Assembly: GCA_902793005.1 (NCBI GenBank)
Contig: CADBBQ010000008.1
Location: 1-58,120, forward strand
Length of the DNA: 58,120 bases
Reading direction: 5' to 3'
DNA from: an uncultured Pseudomonadota bacterium
Lineage (GTDB): Bacteria; Pseudomonadota; Alphaproteobacteria; Rs-D84
In this document: piece by piece, positions 1 to 39,959 of the stretch
How the letters are laid out: each line of letters begins with the position of its first letter
Numbering within the stretch: the first letter of the stretch is position 1
Notes under the pieces: generated by a model
Seen by the model: the letters and a program-made list of their open reading frames with translations, nothing else
Databases searched by the model: none
What the model was told of the DNA's origin: nothing
Translations under genes and position numbers: made by a program

Positions 1-1982
1 CAAACAAACAGTTTATCTCTCCTCACGGAGGTCCAAAAGACACACAAGAAAGACAGATAACTATACCTAGTAATGCGAAATATGTAAGATTACAAATTAG
101 AGCGGTTGGTGATAGGTTATCATCAATGCAACAACAGCTGGAACGCGGTGATACCGCAACCGCGTACACGCCATACAATCCGCTGTGTGCGACGTGTGAC
201 GGGACGATTGTGAATTACACATCAGCAACCGGAACGGTCGTGCAAGATGGCACGCCGACGCCAGAAAACCCGATTGAACCGGTATTCTATCAACAAGGCA
301 ATATGGTCTTGCGCAAGGGTGGCGATTACGCAGATAGCTACGACGCGTCAACGGGAAAGATTACACGTAGAGTCGGTGTAAAAGTGTTGGATGGTACGGA
401 GAATTGGGGAATACAATCTATTAATGATCATGGTATTGCTAATTATCAAAGTACTATGGCAGGTATGCATCCTAGCAGCGGCAGTAACTCTATGATGTCT
501 AGTCATTTTGGTGCAACAGGCAGTCTTATAGCAGAATCGCGTAGGCCCGGATTATTAAAAAGTTCTGGTGATACTTACTTTATTCGTATTTCAAGTGAAA
601 CAGCAAGTACTGTTGCACAATTCAAATCGTGGTTAGCGGCGCAGAAAGCGGCTGGCACGCCCGTTACGATTTACTATGTATTGGAAAATCCGGTCGAGGA
701 AGATTGGACAGAGACATCGTACTGTGAAACGCCAATCAAAATTGCAACTACTAAATACAACGAAACCGCGTTCAGTCCGCTGAATACTGCGTTGGCGAAT
801 GCGATTAGTGTTGTGGACACTGTGGTGTCGAACACGATTGCTCAGGCCGGAAAAATTGCGACTTTGCAGGCACAAAAACAAACCCGTCCAGCGAATGATA
901 CTTGTCCGGCTTATAAACAATGTTTACTGGTTGAGGATGAAAACGGCACGCCGCACTGGTACGAAATCACCGACCCGTTCCGCGATTTCGTCCGCCCAAT
1001 TATCGCGAACAATGTCGCCCCCGCCAGCACCACGAACTCCGCCGGCTACACCCAGTTGGAGTATATCGAGAGTACAGGCACACAGTGGATTGATACGGGA
1101 ATAAAATGGCGTTATGGTTATTCGTTAGAAATAGCATTTACACCAATTCGAACAGGTCCGAACGCAGCTATTTTTGGTGCAAGCAATGGCGATGCATATA
1201 ATAACGGTGAAGTTGCACTATTCTTTCAACGTGATGGATATGATGTAATTTGGCCAACTACAGGTAGCATGACAAGTACCTATCAGCATTTTGGTACTTT
1301 TGCCCTAAATACAAAATATGTTGCTCGATATAATAATTCCGGAATAACAATAGGACAAACCTCTTTAGGGTTTAGTGTATATTCTGGATATGTTTGTGAG
1401 AGGAATTTATTTTTGTTTGCAACAAACCGTGGTGAAGCAAATAAATTCTTTTCCCAGGTAAAAATACATTCAACACGAATTTGGAACAACAATGGAGAGT
1501 TGGTTCGTAACTTTGTTCCGGTAAAACGGAACAGCGATTCTGCGATTGGGATGTATGATACCGTGACGAAAGCGTTCTTTGCGAATGCGGGCACAGGCAC
1601 TTTCACCGCGGGGCCAACTGTCGCGAATACCGACGTGCCGGCAAACGGGACGTGGACCGCGACATGGGCGGCAAATGCCACGACTGGCGTCAGTGCCGGC
1701 ACCATCACCGGCGAGGCGTTGTGTAATGGGGTGGAGGGAACTTACGGTGTTGCCGCAACAAGCGCACAAACATCATCCGCCGATTGGTCCAATAGCGGCG
1801 CAAGTTGTTGGTGCCGGGTAACCGGTGTTGACGATGGTGACGGGGTAAGTGCAGCAAATGGCTCGTGGGTCTTCAGCCTCACGCGCAGTTCGGCCGGCGG
1901 TTGTGCGAACAGCTGTGAGAACTACTGCACGACCTTCGTCAGTAGTCGCGCGGCGTTTATGTCTGCGGTGTTTGGTATGTGA
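1..1982 (+). CDS. Large modular surface/fibre protein, 5' end outside the window; phage-tail-like modules plus Cys-rich C-terminal domain
   Basis: The frame of ORF 126..1982 stays open back to base 3 (NKQFISP...IPSNAKYVRLQ). It shares the IKIATTKYNETAFSPL...KQTRPA and YTxLEYIESTGTQWID...NAGTG modules with 25256..26575. Confidence 0.75.
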   Translation, partial: NKQFISPHGGPKDTQERQITIPSNAKYVRLQIRAVGDRLSSMQQQLERGDTATAYTPYNPLCATCDGTIVNYTSATGTVVQDGTPTPENPIEPVFYQQGNMVLRKGGDYADSYDASTGKITRRVGVKVLDGTENWGIQSINDHGIANYQSTMAGMHPSSGSNSMMSSHFGATGSLIAESRRPGLLKSSGDTYFIRISSETASTVAQFKSWLAAQKAAGTPVTIYYVLENPVEEDWTETSYCETPIKIATTKYNETAFSPLNTALANAISVVDTVVSNTIAQAGKIATLQAQKQTRPANDTCPAYKQCLLVEDENGTPHWYEITDPFRDFVRPIIANNVAPASTTNSAGYTQLEYIESTGTQWIDTGIKWRYGYSLEIAFTPIRTGPNAAIFGASNGDAYNNGEVALFFQRDGYDVIWPTTGSMTSTYQHFGTFALNTKYVARYNNSGITIGQTSLGFSVYSGYVCERNLFLFATNRGEANKFFSQVKIHSTRIWNNNGELVRNFVPVKRNSDSAIGMYDTVTKAFFANAGTGTFTAGPTVANTDVPANGTWTATWAANATTGVSAGTITGEALCNGVEGTYGVAATSAQTSSADWSNSGASCWCRVTGVDDGDGVSAANGSWVFSLTRSSAGGCANSCENYCTTFVSSRAAFMSAVFGM

Positions 1983-1992
1983 TACGTGCCTA

Positions 1993-2085
1993 ACCCCGGC
2001 CCGCTTAGGCTGACGCTACAGCGGGGCCACCCCTTCCCACGACGGAGTGTGATGTGTGTCTGTGCAGCACGCCCGTGGGAAGGGA
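1993..2085. repeat. Palindromic repeat family B (ACCCCG...CCACCCCTTC...GAAGGG)
   Basis: Two hairpins; motif shared with 7547-7617 and 27103-27161. Confidence 0.6.
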
Positions 2086-2095
2086 ATGCAACAAA

Positions 2096-2339
2096 TGCCA
2101 AACCCGACAAAATGCAAAAGCGTTTTGTCATCCTGAGCGCAGTCGAAAGCGGTCGTCAGACCGCGCGGATCTGGGTTTGGCAAAGACAAATTTGTTGGCG
2201 CGTATGCGCCATGGCATCAAATATGCCTGGATCCGCGCTCGCGGAACGCTCGCTTTCGACTGCGTTCGATTACTTATGGAACTGTCATTCCAATGTAATC
2301 TCACTACGCTCAGGATGACAAAAGCCTTTGGCTTTTGTC
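2096..2339. repeat. Solo copy of REP-like nested-hairpin element A (GTCATCCTGAGC...GCTCAGGATGAC)
   Basis: Clearly homologous to 39063-39321 and 39696-39959; core inverted repeats at 2127-2138 and 2308-2319. Confidence 0.9.
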
Positions 2340-2350
2340 TAATTATTCAT

Positions 2351-2385
2351 CAACTGAACTCTGAACTTTGTACTCTGAACACTGA
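2351..2385 (-). repeat. Heptamer array (TTCAGAG/TACAAAG)n
   Basis: caactgaactctgaactttgtactctgaacactgaa; same family as 10853, 26984, 27184 and 34585. Confidence 0.8.
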
Positions 2386-2414
2386 AAAAAATCCCGCGAT
2401 TGCGGGATTTTTTT
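2385..2414. terminator. Bidirectional intrinsic terminator
   Basis: aaaaaatcccgc-gatt-gcgggatttttt between convergent genes. Confidence 0.8.
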
Positions 2415-2434
2415 TATTTTTGCATAATTGCGAT

Positions 2435-2695
2435 TTAAGCAATTTTTGCCAATTTTTTGGTCAAACGCGAAACTTTACGCGCAGCACGTTTTTTCGGCAT
2501 AACTTTGCCGGCGGCCTTCATTATTTTGCTTTCGGCAGAGCGTACCGCCGTTGTTGCCGCGGCCTTGTCCCCGGTTGCAATTGCGGCCAGAGCCTTTTTC
2601 GTTTCGGTTTTTACCGCACTGCGACGTGCAGTGTTGATTGTGTTTTTCTTGATTGTGACCAAGATTCTTTTTTTAGATGACTTGTGATTTGCCAC
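2435..2695 (-). CDS. rpsT: 30S ribosomal protein S20
   Basis: MANHKSSKKRI...AARKVSRL, 86 aa. Confidence 0.97.
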   Translation of the reverse strand: MANHKSSKKRILVTIKKNTINTARRSAVKTETKKALAAIATGDKAAATTAVRSAESKIMKAAGKVMPKKRAARKVSRLTKKLAKIA

Positions 2696-2777
2696 TGTTT
2701 TTCCTTTTGTTTGTTTTTTTATATGTTTTATGATATTTTATATTAACAAATTATAAAATCAAGGAGAAATATAAAAA

Positions 2778-3365
2778 ATGTTGTGGTTTTTTATCGTTTT
2801 GGTTGCATATATGCTGGGCAGTGTGCCGTCGGGCGTCATTTTGACTAAAATTTTGGGTTATGGTGATTTGCGCCGTGTCGGCAGTGGTAATATCGGTGCA
2901 ACAAATGTAATGCGTGTCGGGGGACTGCGCATTGCGGGTTTGGTTTGGTTGTTGGATATGTTAAAGGCAATGTTGGCGGTATGGTTGGGCGCGTATTTTG
3001 GTGGCGTGGTCGCAGGTGCCTGGTGCGGTTTTGCCGCAATTGTTGGACATTGCTTTCCGGTGTGGCTGCGGTTTCGTGGGGGCAAGGGCGTGTCGTGCCT
3101 GTTTGGAATTATGTTGGCGATTAATCCGGTGATTTTTGTGTTTTGCGGTATCGAATGGTTGGTCGTGGCGTTGGGATTAGGAAAATCTTCGGCCGGGGCG
3201 ATTGTGGTGTTTGGGGTGCTGCCGATTTTGGGGTTTGTGATGAATAATGGCGTTGGTTGGGCGTTTTTGGCAATGTCGGTGTTGTGTCTGTGGAGGCACG
3301 TGGATAATTTGCGTCGTTTGGCCCGTGGCGCGGAATCATCGATTGAGTGGCGGTGGCGCAAATAA
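2778..3365 (+). CDS. plsY: Glycerol-3-phosphate acyltransferase PlsY
   Basis: GSGNIGATN, GHCFPVWLRFRGGKGV, HxxNxxRL motifs. Confidence 0.95.
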   Translation: MLWFFIVLVAYMLGSVPSGVILTKILGYGDLRRVGSGNIGATNVMRVGGLRIAGLVWLLDMLKAMLAVWLGAYFGGVVAGAWCGFAAIVGHCFPVWLRFRGGKGVSCLFGIMLAINPVIFVFCGIEWLVVALGLGKSSAGAIVVFGVLPILGFVMNNGVGWAFLAMSVLCLWRHVDNLRRLARGAESSIEWRWRK

Positions 3366-3437
3366 ATCCGTTGTTTCTAGGGGCATTTTATGGTATAATA
3401 TGCTGAAAGAAATTTTGCATATTTTGGGGGATATGGA

Positions 3438-4322
3438 ATGAGAAAATACATCGCGATTTTTATTGTTTGTATGGTGGTCGTGCCGGCCTTTGCCGCGGGA
3501 CGGTCACTGATTAATAATAATGCATCGCGTGCCGGGATGATTAATGGGGCGGGGCGGATGCCGACTTTGTCTGTGCCATATACTGTAAATAATAATTCGG
3601 TTGTGTCGGGTGCAACCAATAATGCGTCGCGTGATGATGCCGGCGTGGTGGCGGATGATGATGCGTCGGTGGCTGACGATGTGCCGCCGGTTAATCGGGA
3701 CAAGGAAAAATTGGCATGTATCAGTAATAATGTCGGCGTTGGGAATACTTTCGTTTGGGCGTCGAAAGACAGTAACACGTCCAGTTATGCATCGATGGTC
3801 GAAGATGTGAAAAATCCTGAAAATAATGTGTGTTTTGTTTTGGTTGGTATGCGCGCTGATGATTCCAGAATTAATGTTTCGGATATTCAACCACAATATT
3901 TCGAGTGGGGGAAAAATATAACCTGTGGCGCGTGGACTGACGAGGCAAAGTTAGAAAAACGAATTTTGGATGCGAAAAAAACTGCACGGACATTGGCAAC
4001 CGTTGGCGGTGCCGTCGGTGGTGCGGGTATTGGCGTGGGGGCTATGGAATTGTTCGGAAACAAGGCGTTATCTAATATAAACGGATTGCAAGGGTTAGAG
4101 GGACAAAAGCAATTTGATGAAGGGTCTACCGAATGGTATGCGGCCAAGGCGGCGGAACTGAAAAACAAGGCGAAAAACAACAACAGTTTAAAAATCGAAT
4201 ACAATCGGTTTGTTGATTTGGTTGATAATTTGCGGGCAGAGTGCAATGGGGAAAATCCTGATTCAAAATGCAATGATGCGAAATATAAAAACTTGGCAGG
4301 GTTGAAATTGGAAAAATTATAA
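3438..4322 (+). CDS. Secreted hypothetical protein with glycine-zipper-like segment
   Basis: Signal peptide; hydrophobic Gly-rich stretch TVGGAVGGAGIGVGA. Confidence 0.7.
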   Translation: MRKYIAIFIVCMVVVPAFAAGRSLINNNASRAGMINGAGRMPTLSVPYTVNNNSVVSGATNNASRDDAGVVADDDASVADDVPPVNRDKEKLACISNNVGVGNTFVWASKDSNTSSYASMVEDVKNPENNVCFVLVGMRADDSRINVSDIQPQYFEWGKNITCGAWTDEAKLEKRILDAKKTARTLATVGGAVGGAGIGVGAMELFGNKALSNINGLQGLEGQKQFDEGSTEWYAAKAAELKNKAKNNNSLKIEYNRFVDLVDNLRAECNGENPDSKCNDAKYKNLAGLKLEKL

Positions 4323-4430
4323 TTATATATGCCATATGATTTCAGGCCCCAGCATTCGTCGCGGGGCCTGTTTTTATGGGTTGCGATTGGGTCGTGCGTT
4401 TGGTATGTTTTTGAAAAATGGATTTAGGCT

Positions 4431-5456
4431 ATGGATGATTTATTTGATAAATTACTGATTTTGCGGTCGCCGGGTGTCGGGCCGGTCGGATATCAAAATA
4501 TGATTCGACAATTTGGCTCGGTTCAGGCGGCGGCGGCCGGATTGCACGATGATGGTGCGCTGTGTGATAAGGTTATGCGCGAAATGGATGCGGCGGCGGC
4601 GGCCGGGGTGCGGTTCGTTGATGATAGTTCAGAATATTATCCGGTGGCCTTGAAAAATGTTAAAAATCATCCGCCGGTGATTTCGGTGCGGGGAAATATT
4701 GAAACTTTACGGCGTCCAATGGTTGGAATCGTTGGAACGCGACACGCGACCGCCACGGGAATGCGATTCGTTGCAGAATTGGCCGAATCGTTTGCGGCGC
4801 ATAATATTGCGGTTGTGTCGGGGATGGCAATTGGAACCGATACGGCGGCACATCGTGGCGCGCTGCGTGCCGCGGGGAACACCCAGACTGTGGCGGTTTT
4901 GGGCGGTGGGGTTGATTATATATGGCCGGTGGAAAACGAATCGTTGTATTGGGAAATTGTGGAACGTGGTGCCGTTATCAGCGAAATGCCGTTCGGGTTT
5001 GTACCAAAAGGCCCGAACTTTGTGCAACGAAATCGATGGATTGCCGGATTGGCAGATAAATTGATTTTAAGCGAGGCCGATTTGAATTCTGGCAGTATGC
5101 GAACCGCGGATTTCGCAATCGGATTAAACCGTGAATTGTGGGCGGTGCCGTCGCATCCGTCGGATGCACGATCGCTGGGGCCTAATTCGTTAATTGCACG
5201 GGGCGCGGCGCGGTTGTGTTCGGGAAAAAATGATTTTTTCAAAACAGGTGAAAAATCTGTTAAAGGGGATGAAAAAAATTCAAAAAATGATGATGTGGAA
5301 AATTTAGTTTTAGATGCGATTGGTTCGGTTCCGGTTTCAGAGTCTGTATTGGCAGATGTTGTCAAAAAAAGTGTTTCGGAAATTAAACGTTGTTTGGTTG
5401 TTCTGGAATTGCGCGGTTTGGTGCAAAAACAGAACGGCGGATATGTCAGATTATGA
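4431..5456 (+). CDS. dprA: DNA-processing protein DprA
   Basis: IVGTR, VVSGMAIGTD, FVQRNRWIAGL, C-terminal LELRG winged helix. Confidence 0.95.
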   Translation: MDDLFDKLLILRSPGVGPVGYQNMIRQFGSVQAAAAGLHDDGALCDKVMREMDAAAAAGVRFVDDSSEYYPVALKNVKNHPPVISVRGNIETLRRPMVGIVGTRHATATGMRFVAELAESFAAHNIAVVSGMAIGTDTAAHRGALRAAGNTQTVAVLGGGVDYIWPVENESLYWEIVERGAVISEMPFGFVPKGPNFVQRNRWIAGLADKLILSEADLNSGSMRTADFAIGLNRELWAVPSHPSDARSLGPNSLIARGAARLCSGKNDFFKTGEKSVKGDEKNSKNDDVENLVLDAIGSVPVSESVLADVVKKSVSEIKRCLVVLELRGLVQKQNGGYVRL

Positions 5457-5944
5457 TAAAAATCTTGTCAATACAATGTATATACATTAGGCGAAAAACC
5501 GGGAAAAAAACGAATCGTTGTCAAAATATAAAAGTTGAAAAAGGAACTAAGAATTTGTTGAAAATTGGAACGGGTGTTCTAAATTTGTAATGTCAAAAAA
5601 AAGAAGAGAAACAAAAACCAAAAAAACATTTGATGATTTGAATTTTTGAGTGTCGGGTGATTTTTTGTGACGAATGTTTTTGAATAAAAATGTTTGGACA
5701 TAATAAAAACCAAAAAAATTAAATTATCAAATTACATTTTTGCGAGAGAGAGTAGGGCATAAATAAACATTGGATTTTTTATCTGAAAATAAAACCAGAT
5801 AAAATTTAATGTTTTTGTGCAGGTGGCTTTTGCAACATTTTTTTGAAAATATTCAATTTAAATGTTGCAGAACAAAACGGTTTGAAAAAATCTCTTGCGC
5901 GGGCAGGAAACTCTTTTCAGAAAGGAAGGAAAAGGAGAAACGGC

Positions 5945-7213
5945 ATGCAGGCAGCAACATTAAAACAAAACGCAAATGTATCTGAAATTCGCGATATGAT
6001 TGCGAAGGAGATGGATTTTGCGGCTTGGACTTCTTGGATTGCGCCGTTGGATTTTAATGTTGTGGATGATGTGTTGGTGCTGATTGCACAAAATCAGTTT
6101 TCTGCGGATTATATTTCGGGTGTTTATGGTGCGTTATTAAAAAATGTTGCGGCCGAATTTGGTTTAAATGTGAAATTGGTTGTGCGTGGTGTGGCGGCTG
6201 CATCAATTGCAAATGATAATAATGTGCAATCTTATGATGCGCCGGTTGTGGAAAAAACATCGCCGGTTGCGTTTGATGCGTTTATTTCATCGGATGAAAA
6301 TGCGTTTGCGTTGACGGCGGCAAAACGCGTGGCGGCCGGGGCGGTATCATTTTCGCCACTGTTTATTTATGGGCCGGCGGGTTGTGGAAAATCTTTGTTG
6401 GCGGGTTGTATCAAATCCGAATCGGAAAATGTTATTTTGATGACGGGTGCGGGGTTTGTTTCGGAATTTGCGCGTGCGTTGAAAAATCGTAATGTGTTCG
6501 CGTTCAAGGATTTCTGCCGCAATTGTGATACATTTATTTTGGATGATGTGCAGAGTTTGGCGGGTAAAAATGCAACAACCGAAGAATTCTTGCAATTGGT
6601 TTTGGATTTGCGTGCCGCGGGTAAAAATGTTGTTTTGACATCCACTGTGGCGCCAAATGCTTTGACCGGTTTTGACAGACGCGCCCAATCATTGTTGGCA
6701 TCTGGATTGGTTGTTGATATGGTGGCACCAAACGCAAATGTTAAACACGAAATGTTGGTGCGCGCCGGGGTTAAATCCGACATCGCTGATGCAATTGCAA
6801 AACGTATCGCGGGTAACGGTCATTTGATTGCCGGTGTGGTGAATAAAATCAAAACATATTCTGAATTGATGGGACAGGACGCCACATTGGATGTTGTGGA
6901 ACATTTGTTGGCGGATACATTGGAAAAATTCAAAACACCAATTTCTATGGTTAAAATGATGTGTGAAAAATTGGGCGTTGCATATGATGCAATTTGTGGG
7001 GCGGGGCGTTCAAAATCTTTGGTATTGGCGCGTCAAATCATTATGGTTGTATTGAAAAATTCGACACGGTTATCTTTGACCGAAATTGGAAATTATGTTG
7101 GTAATCGTGATCACGCAACCGTTATGTATGCATTGCGTCAAATTGAAAAGATGAAACAGACTGATTTGGTATTAGATGCACAGATTAACCAATTAATTGC
7201 CGAATGTAAATAA
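5945..7213 (+). CDS. dnaA: Replication initiator DnaA with a divergent AAA+ domain
   Basis: PLFIYGPAGCGKS, ILDDVQ, domain IV RDHATVMYA; ATG at 5945 follows an AGGAG SD. Confidence 0.9.
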   Translation: MQAATLKQNANVSEIRDMIAKEMDFAAWTSWIAPLDFNVVDDVLVLIAQNQFSADYISGVYGALLKNVAAEFGLNVKLVVRGVAAASIANDNNVQSYDAPVVEKTSPVAFDAFISSDENAFALTAAKRVAAGAVSFSPLFIYGPAGCGKSLLAGCIKSESENVILMTGAGFVSEFARALKNRNVFAFKDFCRNCDTFILDDVQSLAGKNATTEEFLQLVLDLRAAGKNVVLTSTVAPNALTGFDRRAQSLLASGLVVDMVAPNANVKHEMLVRAGVKSDIADAIAKRIAGNGHLIAGVVNKIKTYSELMGQDATLDVVEHLLADTLEKFKTPISMVKMMCEKLGVAYDAICGAGRSKSLVLARQIIMVVLKNSTRLSLTEIGNYVGNRDHATVMYALRQIEKMKQTDLVLDAQINQLIAECK

Positions 7214-7320
7214 ACGGAAATAAAATAACAATACATCTGCTTGTTGTTTGTGCGCTTATGTAGCGTTTGTACACTGCGCTTACAAACAACGGCGCATCTG
7301 TGTCGTTATTTTATTTCGTT
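7213..7320. repeat. Long imperfect palindrome, family C
   Basis: Arms aacggaaataaaataac/gttattttatttcgtt; central TATGTAGCGtttGTACACTGC shared with 18647-18667. Confidence 0.7.
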
Positions 7321-25255: not shown

Positions 25256-26575
25256 TTAATTAAACACGGGTTGTCCACCGATAAATTCGCCTGTGCCAGC
25301 GTTTTCGTAAAATTGTCCGCGCACTAAATCATACATTCCAACCACACCACTTGCATTTTTCGCCGGGATAAGATTTCGAACCAAATTGTTATTATCATCG
25401 TATACTTTAAAACCATATGCATAACCTTTGAATGGATAATTAAAAGAATTACTATGATGTTCTCCATTTATCATGTTGAAAAGTCTTGGTGCAACACCAG
25501 TTGTTCCAGAAAATCCGGTAGTATCACTAAAATCTACAATTTCTGTTTCATTACGATACACCTTTTTATTTATTCCATCGTAATATAGTGTATATATTGT
25601 GCTGGTGTCGTATGACAAGGTAAATGTGTTACTGTTACCACTGTATGCATAATTCCCTCTATCCGCACTTCCTTCCATAAAACCATACGAATAACCATTT
25701 CCTCCATCATATACCGCAAATAATGTTTGATAACCGGTTGATACAGTATGTTTGTATTTAATTTCAAATGAATATTTTTGATTAGGTTTTATTATATTGT
25801 CAATCCATTGTGTGCCGGTGGATTCGATGTATTCTAATTCGGTATAGCCGTCGGGCAAACGGCCGGTCACAATTTCATACCAATGTGGAACACCGCTGGC
25901 GTCTTCGACGAGTAAGCACTTTTTGCCGGCGGGGCAATTTTCGGCGTTATTTGCGTCCGACGGATCGTCGGCTGGGCGGGTTTGTTTTTGCGCCTGCAAA
26001 GTCGCGATGCTTGCCGCCTGGGTAATCGTGTTCGACACCACCGAATCCACCACGCTAATCGCATTCGCCAGCGCCGTATTCAACGGACTAAACGCAGTTT
26101 CGTTGTATTTGGTTGTTGCAATTTTGATTTTATCGACACAATCCATATTATAAATTTTAAATGATTCCGCCCACGCTTGTTGCTGTGATGCACTAAGATT
26201 ACCGAATGTATTAAACCGTAAATATGCAACGCCATCTGGTACGGTAAACACCGCACCTTTTCGCCAAGCCATATAATTGTCTGAAAAAGGACTCGAAACA
26301 CCATTCGGTGCATACGCCTCAGAAGTCCAAGACCCCACTTGGTTTCCCTGGGTATTATATCCGTATAAATTCATAGCATTGGGCACAGATGTTGTCCACA
26401 AAGCCACATATCGTTCACCAGGTGATACATAAAAATCATTTGCGTTTTCGGCCTTGTTGCCATTATTAACAGATATATATTCTCCATCAAATAAATTTTG
26501 ACAATTACTGTAATCTGCGCCCCACACAGGCAATGCCCACAACAGCCCCAGTACGAGGCTTAATATTTTTTTCAT
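25256..26575 (-). CDS. Secreted modular surface protein, paralog of 1-1982
   Basis: Signal peptide MKKILSLVLGLLWALPVWG; shared IKIATTKY and YTELEYIESTGTQWID modules. Confidence 0.85.
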   Translation of the reverse strand: MKKILSLVLGLLWALPVWGADYSNCQNLFDGEYISVNNGNKAENANDFYVSPGERYVALWTTSVPNAMNLYGYNTQGNQVGSWTSEAYAPNGVSSPFSDNYMAWRKGAVFTVPDGVAYLRFNTFGNLSASQQQAWAESFKIYNMDCVDKIKIATTKYNETAFSPLNTALANAISVVDSVVSNTITQAASIATLQAQKQTRPADDPSDANNAENCPAGKKCLLVEDASGVPHWYEIVTGRLPDGYTELEYIESTGTQWIDNIIKPNQKYSFEIKYKHTVSTGYQTLFAVYDGGNGYSYGFMEGSADRGNYAYSGNSNTFTLSYDTSTIYTLYYDGINKKVYRNETEIVDFSDTTGFSGTTGVAPRLFNMINGEHHSNSFNYPFKGYAYGFKVYDDNNNLVRNLIPAKNASGVVGMYDLVRGQFYENAGTGEFIGGQPVFN

Positions 26576-26645
26576 TTTTCCCGTCCTTTCTTTTTTTGTT
26601 TTTGGTTTTTTTGTTCGTTTCGGGACAAAAAGCCTGATTTTTATT

Positions 26646-26908
26646 TGGGAGTTGGATTCGGAGCTCATACATTACTGTATGCAGCACCCCATACCGTCAG
26701 TATAAATGGTTGGGGAATTTATCATTTGGAATTAAAAATTTACATCTATGAATCATCGAAAGAACGATGATAAATAAATGTCGGTGCAAAAAATGAATTG
26801 TTAAACACATATCGGCCCGAATCGAATCGGGTGATGATGGGAATAACGATGCAGGTCTTGCACCGGCCGTACTTGGGCTTTTGAAGTGCCCTCGAATCCA
26901 AATTCCCA
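26646..26908. ncRNA. Candidate structured RNA or leader (~260 nt)
   Basis: Closing stem tgggagttggattcgg/tcgaatccaaattccca enclosing at least six local hairpins. Confidence 0.45.
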
Positions 26909-26983
26909 TTGAATTCAAAATTTAGTATAGAAAAAATTTTATTGTATGCGCAATATTTTTTTGCACAACGGTGTTGTGCAGTT

Positions 26984-39062: not shown

Positions 39063-39321
39063 TTTGCCAAACCCGACAAAACGCAAACGCGTTTTGTCAT
39101 CCTGAGCGAAGTCGAAAGCGGTCGTTAGACCGCGGGGATCTGGGGTTTGGCAAGGACAAATAAGTTGGCGCGGCGGCGCCAGGGCATCAAATATGCCTGG
39201 ATCCGCGCTCGCGAAACGCTCGCTTTCGACTGCGTTCGATTACTTATGGGGCATAAGCCCCAACATAATCTCACTCCGCTCAGGATGACAAAAGCCAGTG
39301 GCTTTTGTCCGGTTTGGCAAA
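39063..39321. repeat. REP-like nested-hairpin element A, copy downstream of the GIY-YIG gene
   Basis: Outer TIR tttgccaaacc/ggtttggcaaa; core GTCATCCTGAGC/GCTCAGGATGAC. Confidence 0.9.
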
Positions 39322-39695: not shown

Positions 39696-39959
39696 TTTGC
39701 CAAACCCGACAAAACGCGTTTGCGTTTTGTCATCCTGAGCGAAGTCGAAAGTCAGACGCGATAGCGGATGACGCGGATCTGGGGTTTGGCAAAGGCAAAC
39801 AAGTTGGCGCGGATGCGCCAAAGCATCAAATATGCCTGGATCCGCGCTCGCGAAACGCTCGCTTTCGACTGCGTTCGATTACTTATGGGGCACAAGCCCC
39901 AACATAATCTCACTCCGCTCAGGATGACAAAAAAACGCAGATGCGTTTTTTCTGTTTGG
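39696..39959. repeat. REP-like nested-hairpin element A, copy upstream of the GIY-YIG gene
   Basis: Direct repeat of 39063-39321. Confidence 0.9.

Follow-up and report, generated by a model that had tools for sequence, protein, structure and literature searches.

Evidence for module exchange at conserved joints in a probable family of exported, lectin-headed proteins of an uncultured alphaproteobacterium

Introduction

Receptor-binding proteins (RBPs) of lactococcal phages follow a shoulder-neck-head layout, and the Mtd protein of Bordetella phage BPP-1 is the variable protein of a diversity-generating retroelement (DGR). According to earlier reports, sub-megabase Alphaproteobacteria of gut and rumen are without most biosynthetic capacity and live at the expense of other cells. 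Here we describe two genes on one contig of an uncultured alphaproteobacterium (assembly GCA_902793005.1, hereafter G000; 834 kb in 20 contigs, 91% complete, GC 0.42), which probably belong to a family of exported, fibre-like proteins whose modules are shuffled by recombination at short conserved joints. The window analysed is the whole contig C8 (G000:C8:1-58120), 58,120 nucleotides (nt) in length; gene 1 opens at its left edge and gene 2 lies in its interior. A putative assignment of G000 to Candidatus Enterousia, order Rs-D84, would fit the description in PMC12306168.

By analogy, the nearest known design is the mosaic adhesive trimer (MAT) fibre family of Bdellovibrio bacteriovorus. Caulton et al. 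(2024; PMC10769870) describe a superfamily of 21 members that combine an invariant, beta-rich N-terminal domain of ~130 amino acids (aa), placed after the signal peptide, with a trimeric beta-prism shaft and a variable C-terminal tip, and a C-type-lectin, Mtd-like tip occurs among them.

According to the explanation that we consider probable as a whole, members of the family described here would consist of a signal peptide, one or more variable N-terminal beta-sandwich modules, a helical stalk of ~55 residues, a two-cysteine neck and a LamG head, to which some members, gene 1 included, would add a Cys-rich tail once rewritten by the genome's DGR. Diversification would take place by homologous recombination at short joints, namely the QLERGDTATAYTPY junction, the stalk and, in the LamG head, its first and its last strand, with exchange of whole modules, or of the head interior alone, between paralogs and between strains. 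The proteins would be exported through Sec, presumably to the surface (the genome has one secretin gene), and would present lectin heads on helical stalks. Recombination at the joints, supplemented in some members by the action of the DGR, would change their repertoire and specificity. The family would be an unnamed, clade-restricted and heavily expanded set of Sec-exported modular proteins, which may reach the surface as variable glycan-binding adhesins directed toward partner cells or host material, and whose stalk may oligomerise.

Like the MATs, these proteins are multi-copy (14-38 here), bear signal peptides, resemble phage tail fibres, join a constant part to swappable lectin-type tips and occur in a contact-dependent bacterium. 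Unlike in the MATs, the invariant part is a central helical stalk with a Cys neck, both sides of it vary, the domain order is permutable, and some members contain a DGR repeat. In place of a conserved N-terminal domain, the N-terminal parts of 188 family proteins form 87 clusters, and where the MATs have a beta-prism shaft our monomer model has an alpha-helical stalk (aa 250-290) with low values of the predicted local distance difference test (pLDDT). Variable tips on a constant scaffold were found, with 105 C-part clusters on one stalk, but this is an analogy of design and not homology: no sequence match to the MATs was found, nor was an S74 domain (Pfam). A YadA-type C-terminal anchor of trimeric autotransporters was likewise not found in Pfam (at E <= 1), the C-terminus being a lectin head in gene 2 and a Cys-rich domain in gene 1. 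With phage RBPs and tail fibres the family shares head exchange at conserved joints, the stalk/neck/head layout and a jelly-roll lectin head, and its 'B' module has detectable homology to a virion protein of the C. perfringens phage phiCP39-O. In contrast to phage fibres, the family is cellular, Sec-exported and chromosomally dispersed, with its own promoter and leader for each gene, and it lies outside virion gene clusters, except possibly for the copy on a phage-like contig (L025). As in DGR variable proteins such as Mtd, a repeat in gene 1 differs from its template mostly at adenines; unlike in those proteins, the main diversification here appears to be cassette exchange rather than mutagenic retrohoming.

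Two related genes in the window

An initial annotation, made from the letters of this DNA, had placed gene 1 at 1..1620. A gene is indeed present there, but it does not end at 1620: the open frame, 3..1982 on the plus strand and 5'-open at the contig edge, continues for 362 nt more. Gene 2 occupies 25256..26575 on the minus strand and starts at MKKILSL (leader MKKILSLVLGLLWALPVWG); the frame extends upstream to 26668, and the start given here agrees with that of the homologues P0122 and P0084. Judged by their alignment, the two genes are paralogs, with 143/323 identities (44%, BLASTP E 2e-61) between aa 241-542 of gene 1 and aa 146-439 of gene 2. The conserved DNA block that had been noticed between them lies at 734-892 and, as the reverse complement, at 26129-25971 (86.8% identity over 159 nt, E 3e-52), and a second block joins 1039-1106 to 25854-25787 (73.5% identity). 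The brackets LEYIESTG...GMYD...NAGTG are also common to both genes.

Module exchange at conserved joints

Cassette-like exchange of modules at these brackets, as the initial annotation had proposed, is borne out by sharp breakpoints at 135, 1073 and 1500 of gene 1. The metagenome locus L029 is 94.4% identical to gene 1 over 135-742 and unrelated to it over 1-134, and the identity sets in where the QLERGDTATAYTPY junction begins. The breakpoint (column ~140 of the alignment, window position 135) is thus at the 5' edge of the conserved junction QLERGDTATAYTPYNPLCATC (135..196), and what precedes it is the end part of a variable N-terminal module 'A' (3..134, its start being off the contig), which is AT-rich, with a GC content at third codon positions (GC3) of 0.26, and is matched in only 5/203 family proteins. 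Within G000, the paralog C4_15756 matches gene 1 at 699-1073 (85%) and at 1500-1975 (76%), and not between; the gap of 1073-1500 coincides precisely with what the two brackets of the LamG head enclose. Another paralog, on contig C14, shares the head core of gene 1 (79% aa identity) with a B module that is just 48% identical.

Gene 2 shows the same type of pattern. Its head differs from that of the homologue P0084 at 4/168 positions between ESTGTQWID and GMYD (97% identity), and the two proteins diverge just outside these motifs, the stalk being 89% and the neck 82% identical and the N modules unrelated; the N module of P0084 is of the B type of gene 1. P0122 has the N module of gene 2 (87%) with a different head. 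The head type of gene 2 is found ahead of the stalk, with a DGR-type tail added, in P0123 and L039, behind a Listeria-Bacteroides repeat in P0126, and on a different fibre in P0140, P0142 and P0143.

For a broader view, 205 proteins were examined, 198 of which had a locatable stalk and 188 both an N and a C part of at least 80 aa. Among the pairs that share a C cluster, only 30/223 share an N cluster too. In the 34 proteins that have a B module, a stalk/neck and a C-terminal domain, Mantel correlations between adjacent modules were 0.42 and 0.30, and the distances of the B and C-terminal modules were uncorrelated (r 0.07, p 0.24). The histories of the N and C parts are uncoupled.

Some candidates for exchange were set aside. 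Recent gene conversion of the 159-nt stalk block between gene 1 and gene 2 was rejected because synonymous divergence (pS) between the two genes is 0.43 there, so the block is not a recent copy. Among joints seen in contigs assembled from sequencing runs, 1073>1500 and 1565>734 fit C4_15756 and paralogs with two heads, and 196>738 has sides of less than 30 letters; none of them was counted. The contigs of runs X5 and X6 do not cover 1121-1520 or most of 1681-1920 and were not used as evidence.

Predicted structure of the modules

The AlphaFold2 model of gene 1, computed from an alignment of 92 sequences, has a pLDDT of 80.7. Its B module (197..722), which resembles a phage virion protein, is modelled as a beta-sandwich with a helix (aa 64-240; strands over aa 68-234, pLDDT 70-94). 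The ends of this module are conserved and its interior (~400-620) is variable, with DNA matches to paralogs over 153-400 and from 621 and none over 400-620. The stalk, IKIATTKYNE...LQAQKQTRP (723..896), is the family-defining module, present in 195/203 retrieved proteins and predicted to form the helix at aa 250-290. It is followed by the neck CPAYKQCLLVEDENGTPHWYEI with a type-I P/A/T linker (897..1040), in which C301, C307 and W319 are invariant, and for which the model gives a beta-hairpin and a helix around the two cysteines (aa 300-335, pLDDT 81-96). A three-copy complex prediction of stalk and neck (aa 238-346) yielded no answer (score 0.02, without controls).

The LamG/pentraxin-type head (1041..1625) is made of a 5' bracket (1041-1073), a swappable core (1074-1499) and a 3' bracket (1500-1625). 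Its residues 349-540 were modelled as a jelly roll that superposes, in VIA-align, on the LamG module of PAPP-A with Z 15.4 (root mean square deviation 2.9, 171 aligned), on laminin alpha2 LG5 with Z 14.4, on PTX3 with 14.1 and on the sialic-acid-binding CBM40 with ~12; Foldseek also matched it to the agrin G2 domain (E 7e-5). In the model, the head has a LamG/pentraxin/concanavalin A-like lectin fold. The last part of gene 1 is a GC-rich, Cys-rich C-terminal domain (1626..1982; aa 545-659, pLDDT 90-97). Sequence searches were empty by comparison with these structural matches: Pfam gave no family at E <= 1 for either protein, Laminin_G included, a sequence profile search of the PDB gave 0 matches at E <= 1, and the ESM Atlas gave no usable match for the C-terminal domain.

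In gene 2, the signal peptide (26575-26519) is followed by the N module (26518-26141), the stalk (26140-25967), a type-II neck (25966-25856) and a LamG head (25855-25259) whose core extends over ~25810-25361. The AlphaFold2 model of this protein (pLDDT 69) shows the stalk helix (aa 163-195) and a head rich in beta structure, with a pLDDT of 45-75 in the N module, which was found in only 4/203 proteins.

Composition of joints and cores

For base composition we used as background 3963 in-frame 150-nt windows from the long open reading frames (ORFs) of G000, with 1st, 50th and 99th percentiles of GC3 at 0.20, 0.42 and 0.61; the mean GC3 of these ORFs is 0.41. By sliding GC3, the compositional steps first noticed along both genes are real and extreme. 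In gene 1, GC3 is low at 3-152 (0.26), 378-677 (0.26-0.32) and 1128-1502 (0.18-0.28) and high at 903-1127 (0.64-0.70) and 1503-1800 (0.60-0.70), with extremes of 0.18 in 1128-1352 and of 0.70 in 903-1052 and 1578-1727. In gene 2, values of 0.14-0.30 (25825-25376) adjoin values of 0.58-0.68 (26125-25826), the extremes being 0.14 in 25600-25451 and 0.68 in 26050-25901. The flanks had been called host-like, which is not what we find, since their GC3 of 0.55-0.70 lies in the 95th-100th percentile of the genome. Conserved blocks and cores are both outliers, in opposite directions.

The same holds across 11 paralogs of G000. Their stalks have an aa identity of ~0.9, a third-position identity of 0.65-0.77 and a GC3 of 0.53-0.67; their LamG cores have an aa identity of 0.13-0.32 and a GC3 of 0.16-0.31, and all 11 cores are uniformly AT-rich, regardless of sequence type. 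As to the claim that the interiors are unrelated to each other, it holds at the DNA level for the two LamG interiors, but the fold type is the same and the family aligns through them.

A C-rich patch at 960-1060, within the neck and linker, is also real (41 C and 20 G in 101 nt) and arises from C-ending codons, 23/34 third positions being C. It is conserved in four paralogs with the type-I neck/linker, those on C14, C4 and C1 among them, at a third-position C content (C3) of 0.44-0.71, and all four are on the G-rich strand of their contigs. Import of the patch from an oppositely oriented paralog, as first supposed, is not supported: the four copies are co-oriented, and their C3 is far above the mean of 0.23 in the minus-strand genes of the window, so that strand inversion does not explain the patch.

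Relation to phages

A resemblance to phage tail or receptor-binding proteins, suggested by the initial annotation, stood as distant homology of one module and failed as a close relationship. Residues 122-238 of gene 1, a part of the B module, match phrog_23208, annotated as virion structural protein, at E 5.2e-8 and the tail fiber entry phrog_6782 at E 0.0037; their best matches among the predicted viral structures of BFVD are proteins of uncultivated gut Siphoviridae (E 2.8e-18, 26% identity). In a tblastn search of 50,697 phage records, gene 1 found two, both of phiCP39-O, whose virion protein is 31% identical to the B module (E 1e-5), and gene 2 found none; the PHROG matches of gene 2 were none better than E 0.023. 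No close relative was found by scanning IMG/VR with the head of gene 2 and the B module of gene 1. Each of the modules has its closest relatives in metagenome-assembled genomes (MAGs) of related Alphaproteobacteria.

One phage-like contig, L025 (IMG/VR, 1-7261), does carry a family member, with signal peptide, LamG head, stalk and neck, then a stop. The gene has the leader described below, stands at the contig end and adjoins genes for an endolysin, a major head protein (E 1.4e-72) and tail proteins (E 5.9e-80 and 1.9e-28). Its GC3 is 0.10-0.23 in the core and 0.6-0.7 in the stalk, and that of the phage genes is 0.23-0.32. The contig may be a prophage edge or hold a phage-borne gene, and a pool of modules shared with the phages of the clade is possible.

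Alternative explanations

Several points weigh against shuffling among surface adhesins as we have described it. The 87 N-part and 105 C-part clusters occur in 168 combinations, and these counts are rough, the proteins having been gathered by similarity to gene 1 or gene 2 and clustered by single linkage. Between in-genome paralogs pS is ~0.7 outside the stalk, which is near saturation, and 0.24-0.61 within it; most of these paralogs are old, so that a large part of the shuffling is old as well, and only a few of the exchanges (L029, P0084) seem to be recent. Conservation of the stalk is mainly due to purifying selection, with nonsynonymous divergence (pN) of 0.06 and somewhat reduced synonymous change. 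We detected neither an anchor nor an autotransporter barrel nor a lipobox (Pfam being empty), and display at the surface is presumed. Binding of carbohydrate, which the modelled head suggests, is a hint from the fold, and LamG domains bind proteins too. As to the GC3 contrast, the GC3-rich joints may reflect recombination or a synonymous constraint, and the AT3-rich cores a fast, AT-biased evolution.

The saturation of synonymous sites between most paralogs, the strong purifying selection on the stalk and cores that are weakly alignable as one fold would all suit a history with no recombination, in which ancient paralogs kept their brackets and stalk under purifying selection and their interiors diverged in place under diversifying selection. 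We nevertheless think this very improbable, since a DNA identity of 94% that stops abruptly at 135, and a 97% identical head on a neck and stalk of 82-89% with an unrelated N module, are incompatible with in-place divergence, which also leaves the permuted domain order and the uncorrelated module distances unexplained. Recent capture of the AT-rich cores from phages, set between host-derived flanks, was the idea of the initial annotation, and what we found for it is only that the B module is distantly homologous to phage proteins and that L025 has a family member, which stands with its leader beside phage genes whose GC3 is nearer to the cores (0.10-0.30) than to the host mean. This origin is unlikely, given that the cores have no close phage relative in the records searched, that the closest relatives of the modules are in related MAGs, that all 11 unrelated cores have the same low GC3, and that the GC3-rich stalk of the L025 copy is out of line with both backgrounds, phage and host. 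The tail-fibre-like architecture, the PHROG matches and the same L025 copy could also be accommodated if the genes encoded structural parts of a prophage, a tailocin or a particle like a gene transfer agent. This we hold to be hardly credible, as Sec-type signal peptides were found in all members examined and the 14 copies in G000 are dispersed among housekeeping genes, with no phage gene adjoining gene 1 or gene 2.

An exported fibre-like family recombining at its joints remains, then, the explanation that we prefer. With this in mind, one may speculate that the GC3-rich joints are kept synonymously as recombination handles, and that the 14-38 dispersed expression sites, all with the same promoter and structured leader, form a genome-wide combinatorial system of adhesin shuffling, layered on the DGR and supplied from a module pool shared with the phages of the clade. 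This further step is doubtful; if true, it would amount to programmed surface variation in an obligately partner-dependent, sub-megabase gut bacterium. An exported, lectin-headed family that takes up at least 3% of the genome and has two routes of diversification is an obvious candidate for the contact machinery of a partner-dependent bacterium. It may also be useful as an instance, found in nature, of plug-and-play binding modules whose crossover joints are defined, and modules may even pass between this bacterium and its phages.

The DGR-type tail of gene 1

The final 114 nt of the repeat-bearing tail of gene 1 (1863-1976) resemble five other places in G000. One of these, a template-like repeat rich in AAC codons, lies at C4 ~65158-65271, upstream of the sole reverse transcriptase gene (C4:66691-67242, the one RVT_1 match in G000); template and reverse transcriptase are on a different contig from gene 1. 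Over its first 90 nt, the gene 1 repeat has 20 differences from the template, 15 at template adenines and 5 at other bases, and there are 14 differences in its 3' 34 nt. Two active repeats that adjoin the template have 13/0 and 18/0 differences at adenine and non-adenine sites, respectively, with identity up to the last 5-6 nt. A conserved 3' end matching the template, as expected of the initiation of mutagenic homing (IMH) region, was not found in gene 1. Because of its non-A changes and its diverged 3' end the gene 1 repeat looks inactive, and to judge from these differences the tail looks like a former DGR target, now decayed or orphaned.

Size and distribution of the family

G000 contains 14 stalk-bearing loci, which add up to 25,158 nt or 3.0% of the assembly. 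Stalk and neck together were found in 6/121 sampled genomes of the order, G000 included, with 14, 16, 17, 26, 26 and 38 matches. The five other genomes are the closest to G000, their TolB being 85-95% identical to that of G000 as against 70-76% for the other genomes of the same genus that were compared. In the genome with 38 matches (G079), most stalk matches reach a stop codon just after the neck, which suggests that it holds many short head-stalk-neck forms like that of L025. Among 1.84 billion protein representatives, stalk and neck had 321 matches at E <= 0.001; every match with a name is a hypothetical protein from an alphaproteobacterial MAG, and the MAGs that hold related loci are of rumen and gut origin.

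The initial view of these proteins as mosaic and secreted is supported: N-terminal leaders of the MKKILSLVLGLLWALPVWG type occur in gene 2, L029 and homologues, and signal peptides in all members examined. We found no paper that pairs Rs-D84 with a diversity-generating retroelement, and among the papers listed for adhesins, surface proteins or tail fibres none names Rs-D84.

The leader and the site of gene 2

Upstream of gene 2, at 26640..26975 on the minus strand, a promoter-like box (TTG...TATAAT-like) is followed by a 5' leader of ~300 nt that ends in a hairpin with a GNRA loop. This region has 70-76% identity with what lies upstream of at least 6 paralogs, and copies are found in L004, L006, L009, L010, L039 and the phage-like L025. 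In the alignment and consensus fold, 6/65 pairs show compensatory change and the long-range helix CCGGTGCAAA/TTTGCACCGA is invariant; the loop of the terminal hairpin is GTAA (GCAA in L025), and a C-G pair of this hairpin is changed to T-A in L025. A search of Rfam gave no family for the leader, and the only Rfam match in the window is one tRNA. A leader-like element (C2 214775-214981) also lies a few hundred bases from the single secretin gene of G000 (C2:213948-214448).

Gene 2 has as neighbours TolB, a 138-aa ORF (orf138) and an acyltransferase-domain gene. Of 17 congeners, 12 have no gene between orf138 and the acyltransferase gene, three have other secreted-protein genes at this site, and in two it falls at a contig end; whole genes of the family come and go. 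The three congeners with other genes (L013 3082-4278, L020 1490-4419, L024 1849-6332) have unrelated signal-peptide proteins there, the products being a 398-aa Cys-rich protein, a 252-aa protein with a 716-aa Q/A-rich protein, and an array of coiled-coil fibre proteins. By its contents, this intergenic site resembles a hotspot for genes of surface proteins. In the two closest relatives (G085 C1 and G079 C13; L042 and L043) the contig ends ~510-520 nt past orf138, where G000 has gene 2, as would suit an assembly that broke at sequence of the family or of a repeat; the contig of gene 1 and L029 likewise break inside family genes. The coiled-coil fibre proteins of L024 (3204-5187), a congener without the family, end in C-x4-5-C...G..(P/F).W, for example NCTETTCVLSVNGDNQPYWMKL. 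The neck CPAYKQCLLVEDENGTPHWYEI resembles these endings, and from this likeness the neck may be an older fibre-capping element.

The surroundings of gene 1

Gene 1 is neighboured by S20 and PlsY. A large palindromic dispersed repeat lies behind it at 2110-2336, with outer arms of 34 nt (85% complementary) and inner arms at 2135-2156 and 2246-2267; further copies are found at 39065-39309 and 39698-39932 and on many contigs, and the repeat flanks many family genes as well as the DGR region. The 3' flank of gene 1 (1983..2190, plus strand) is conserved behind the three paralogs that share the DGR-type tail, and is 90% identical to C14 2798-3007 and C4 18071-18279.

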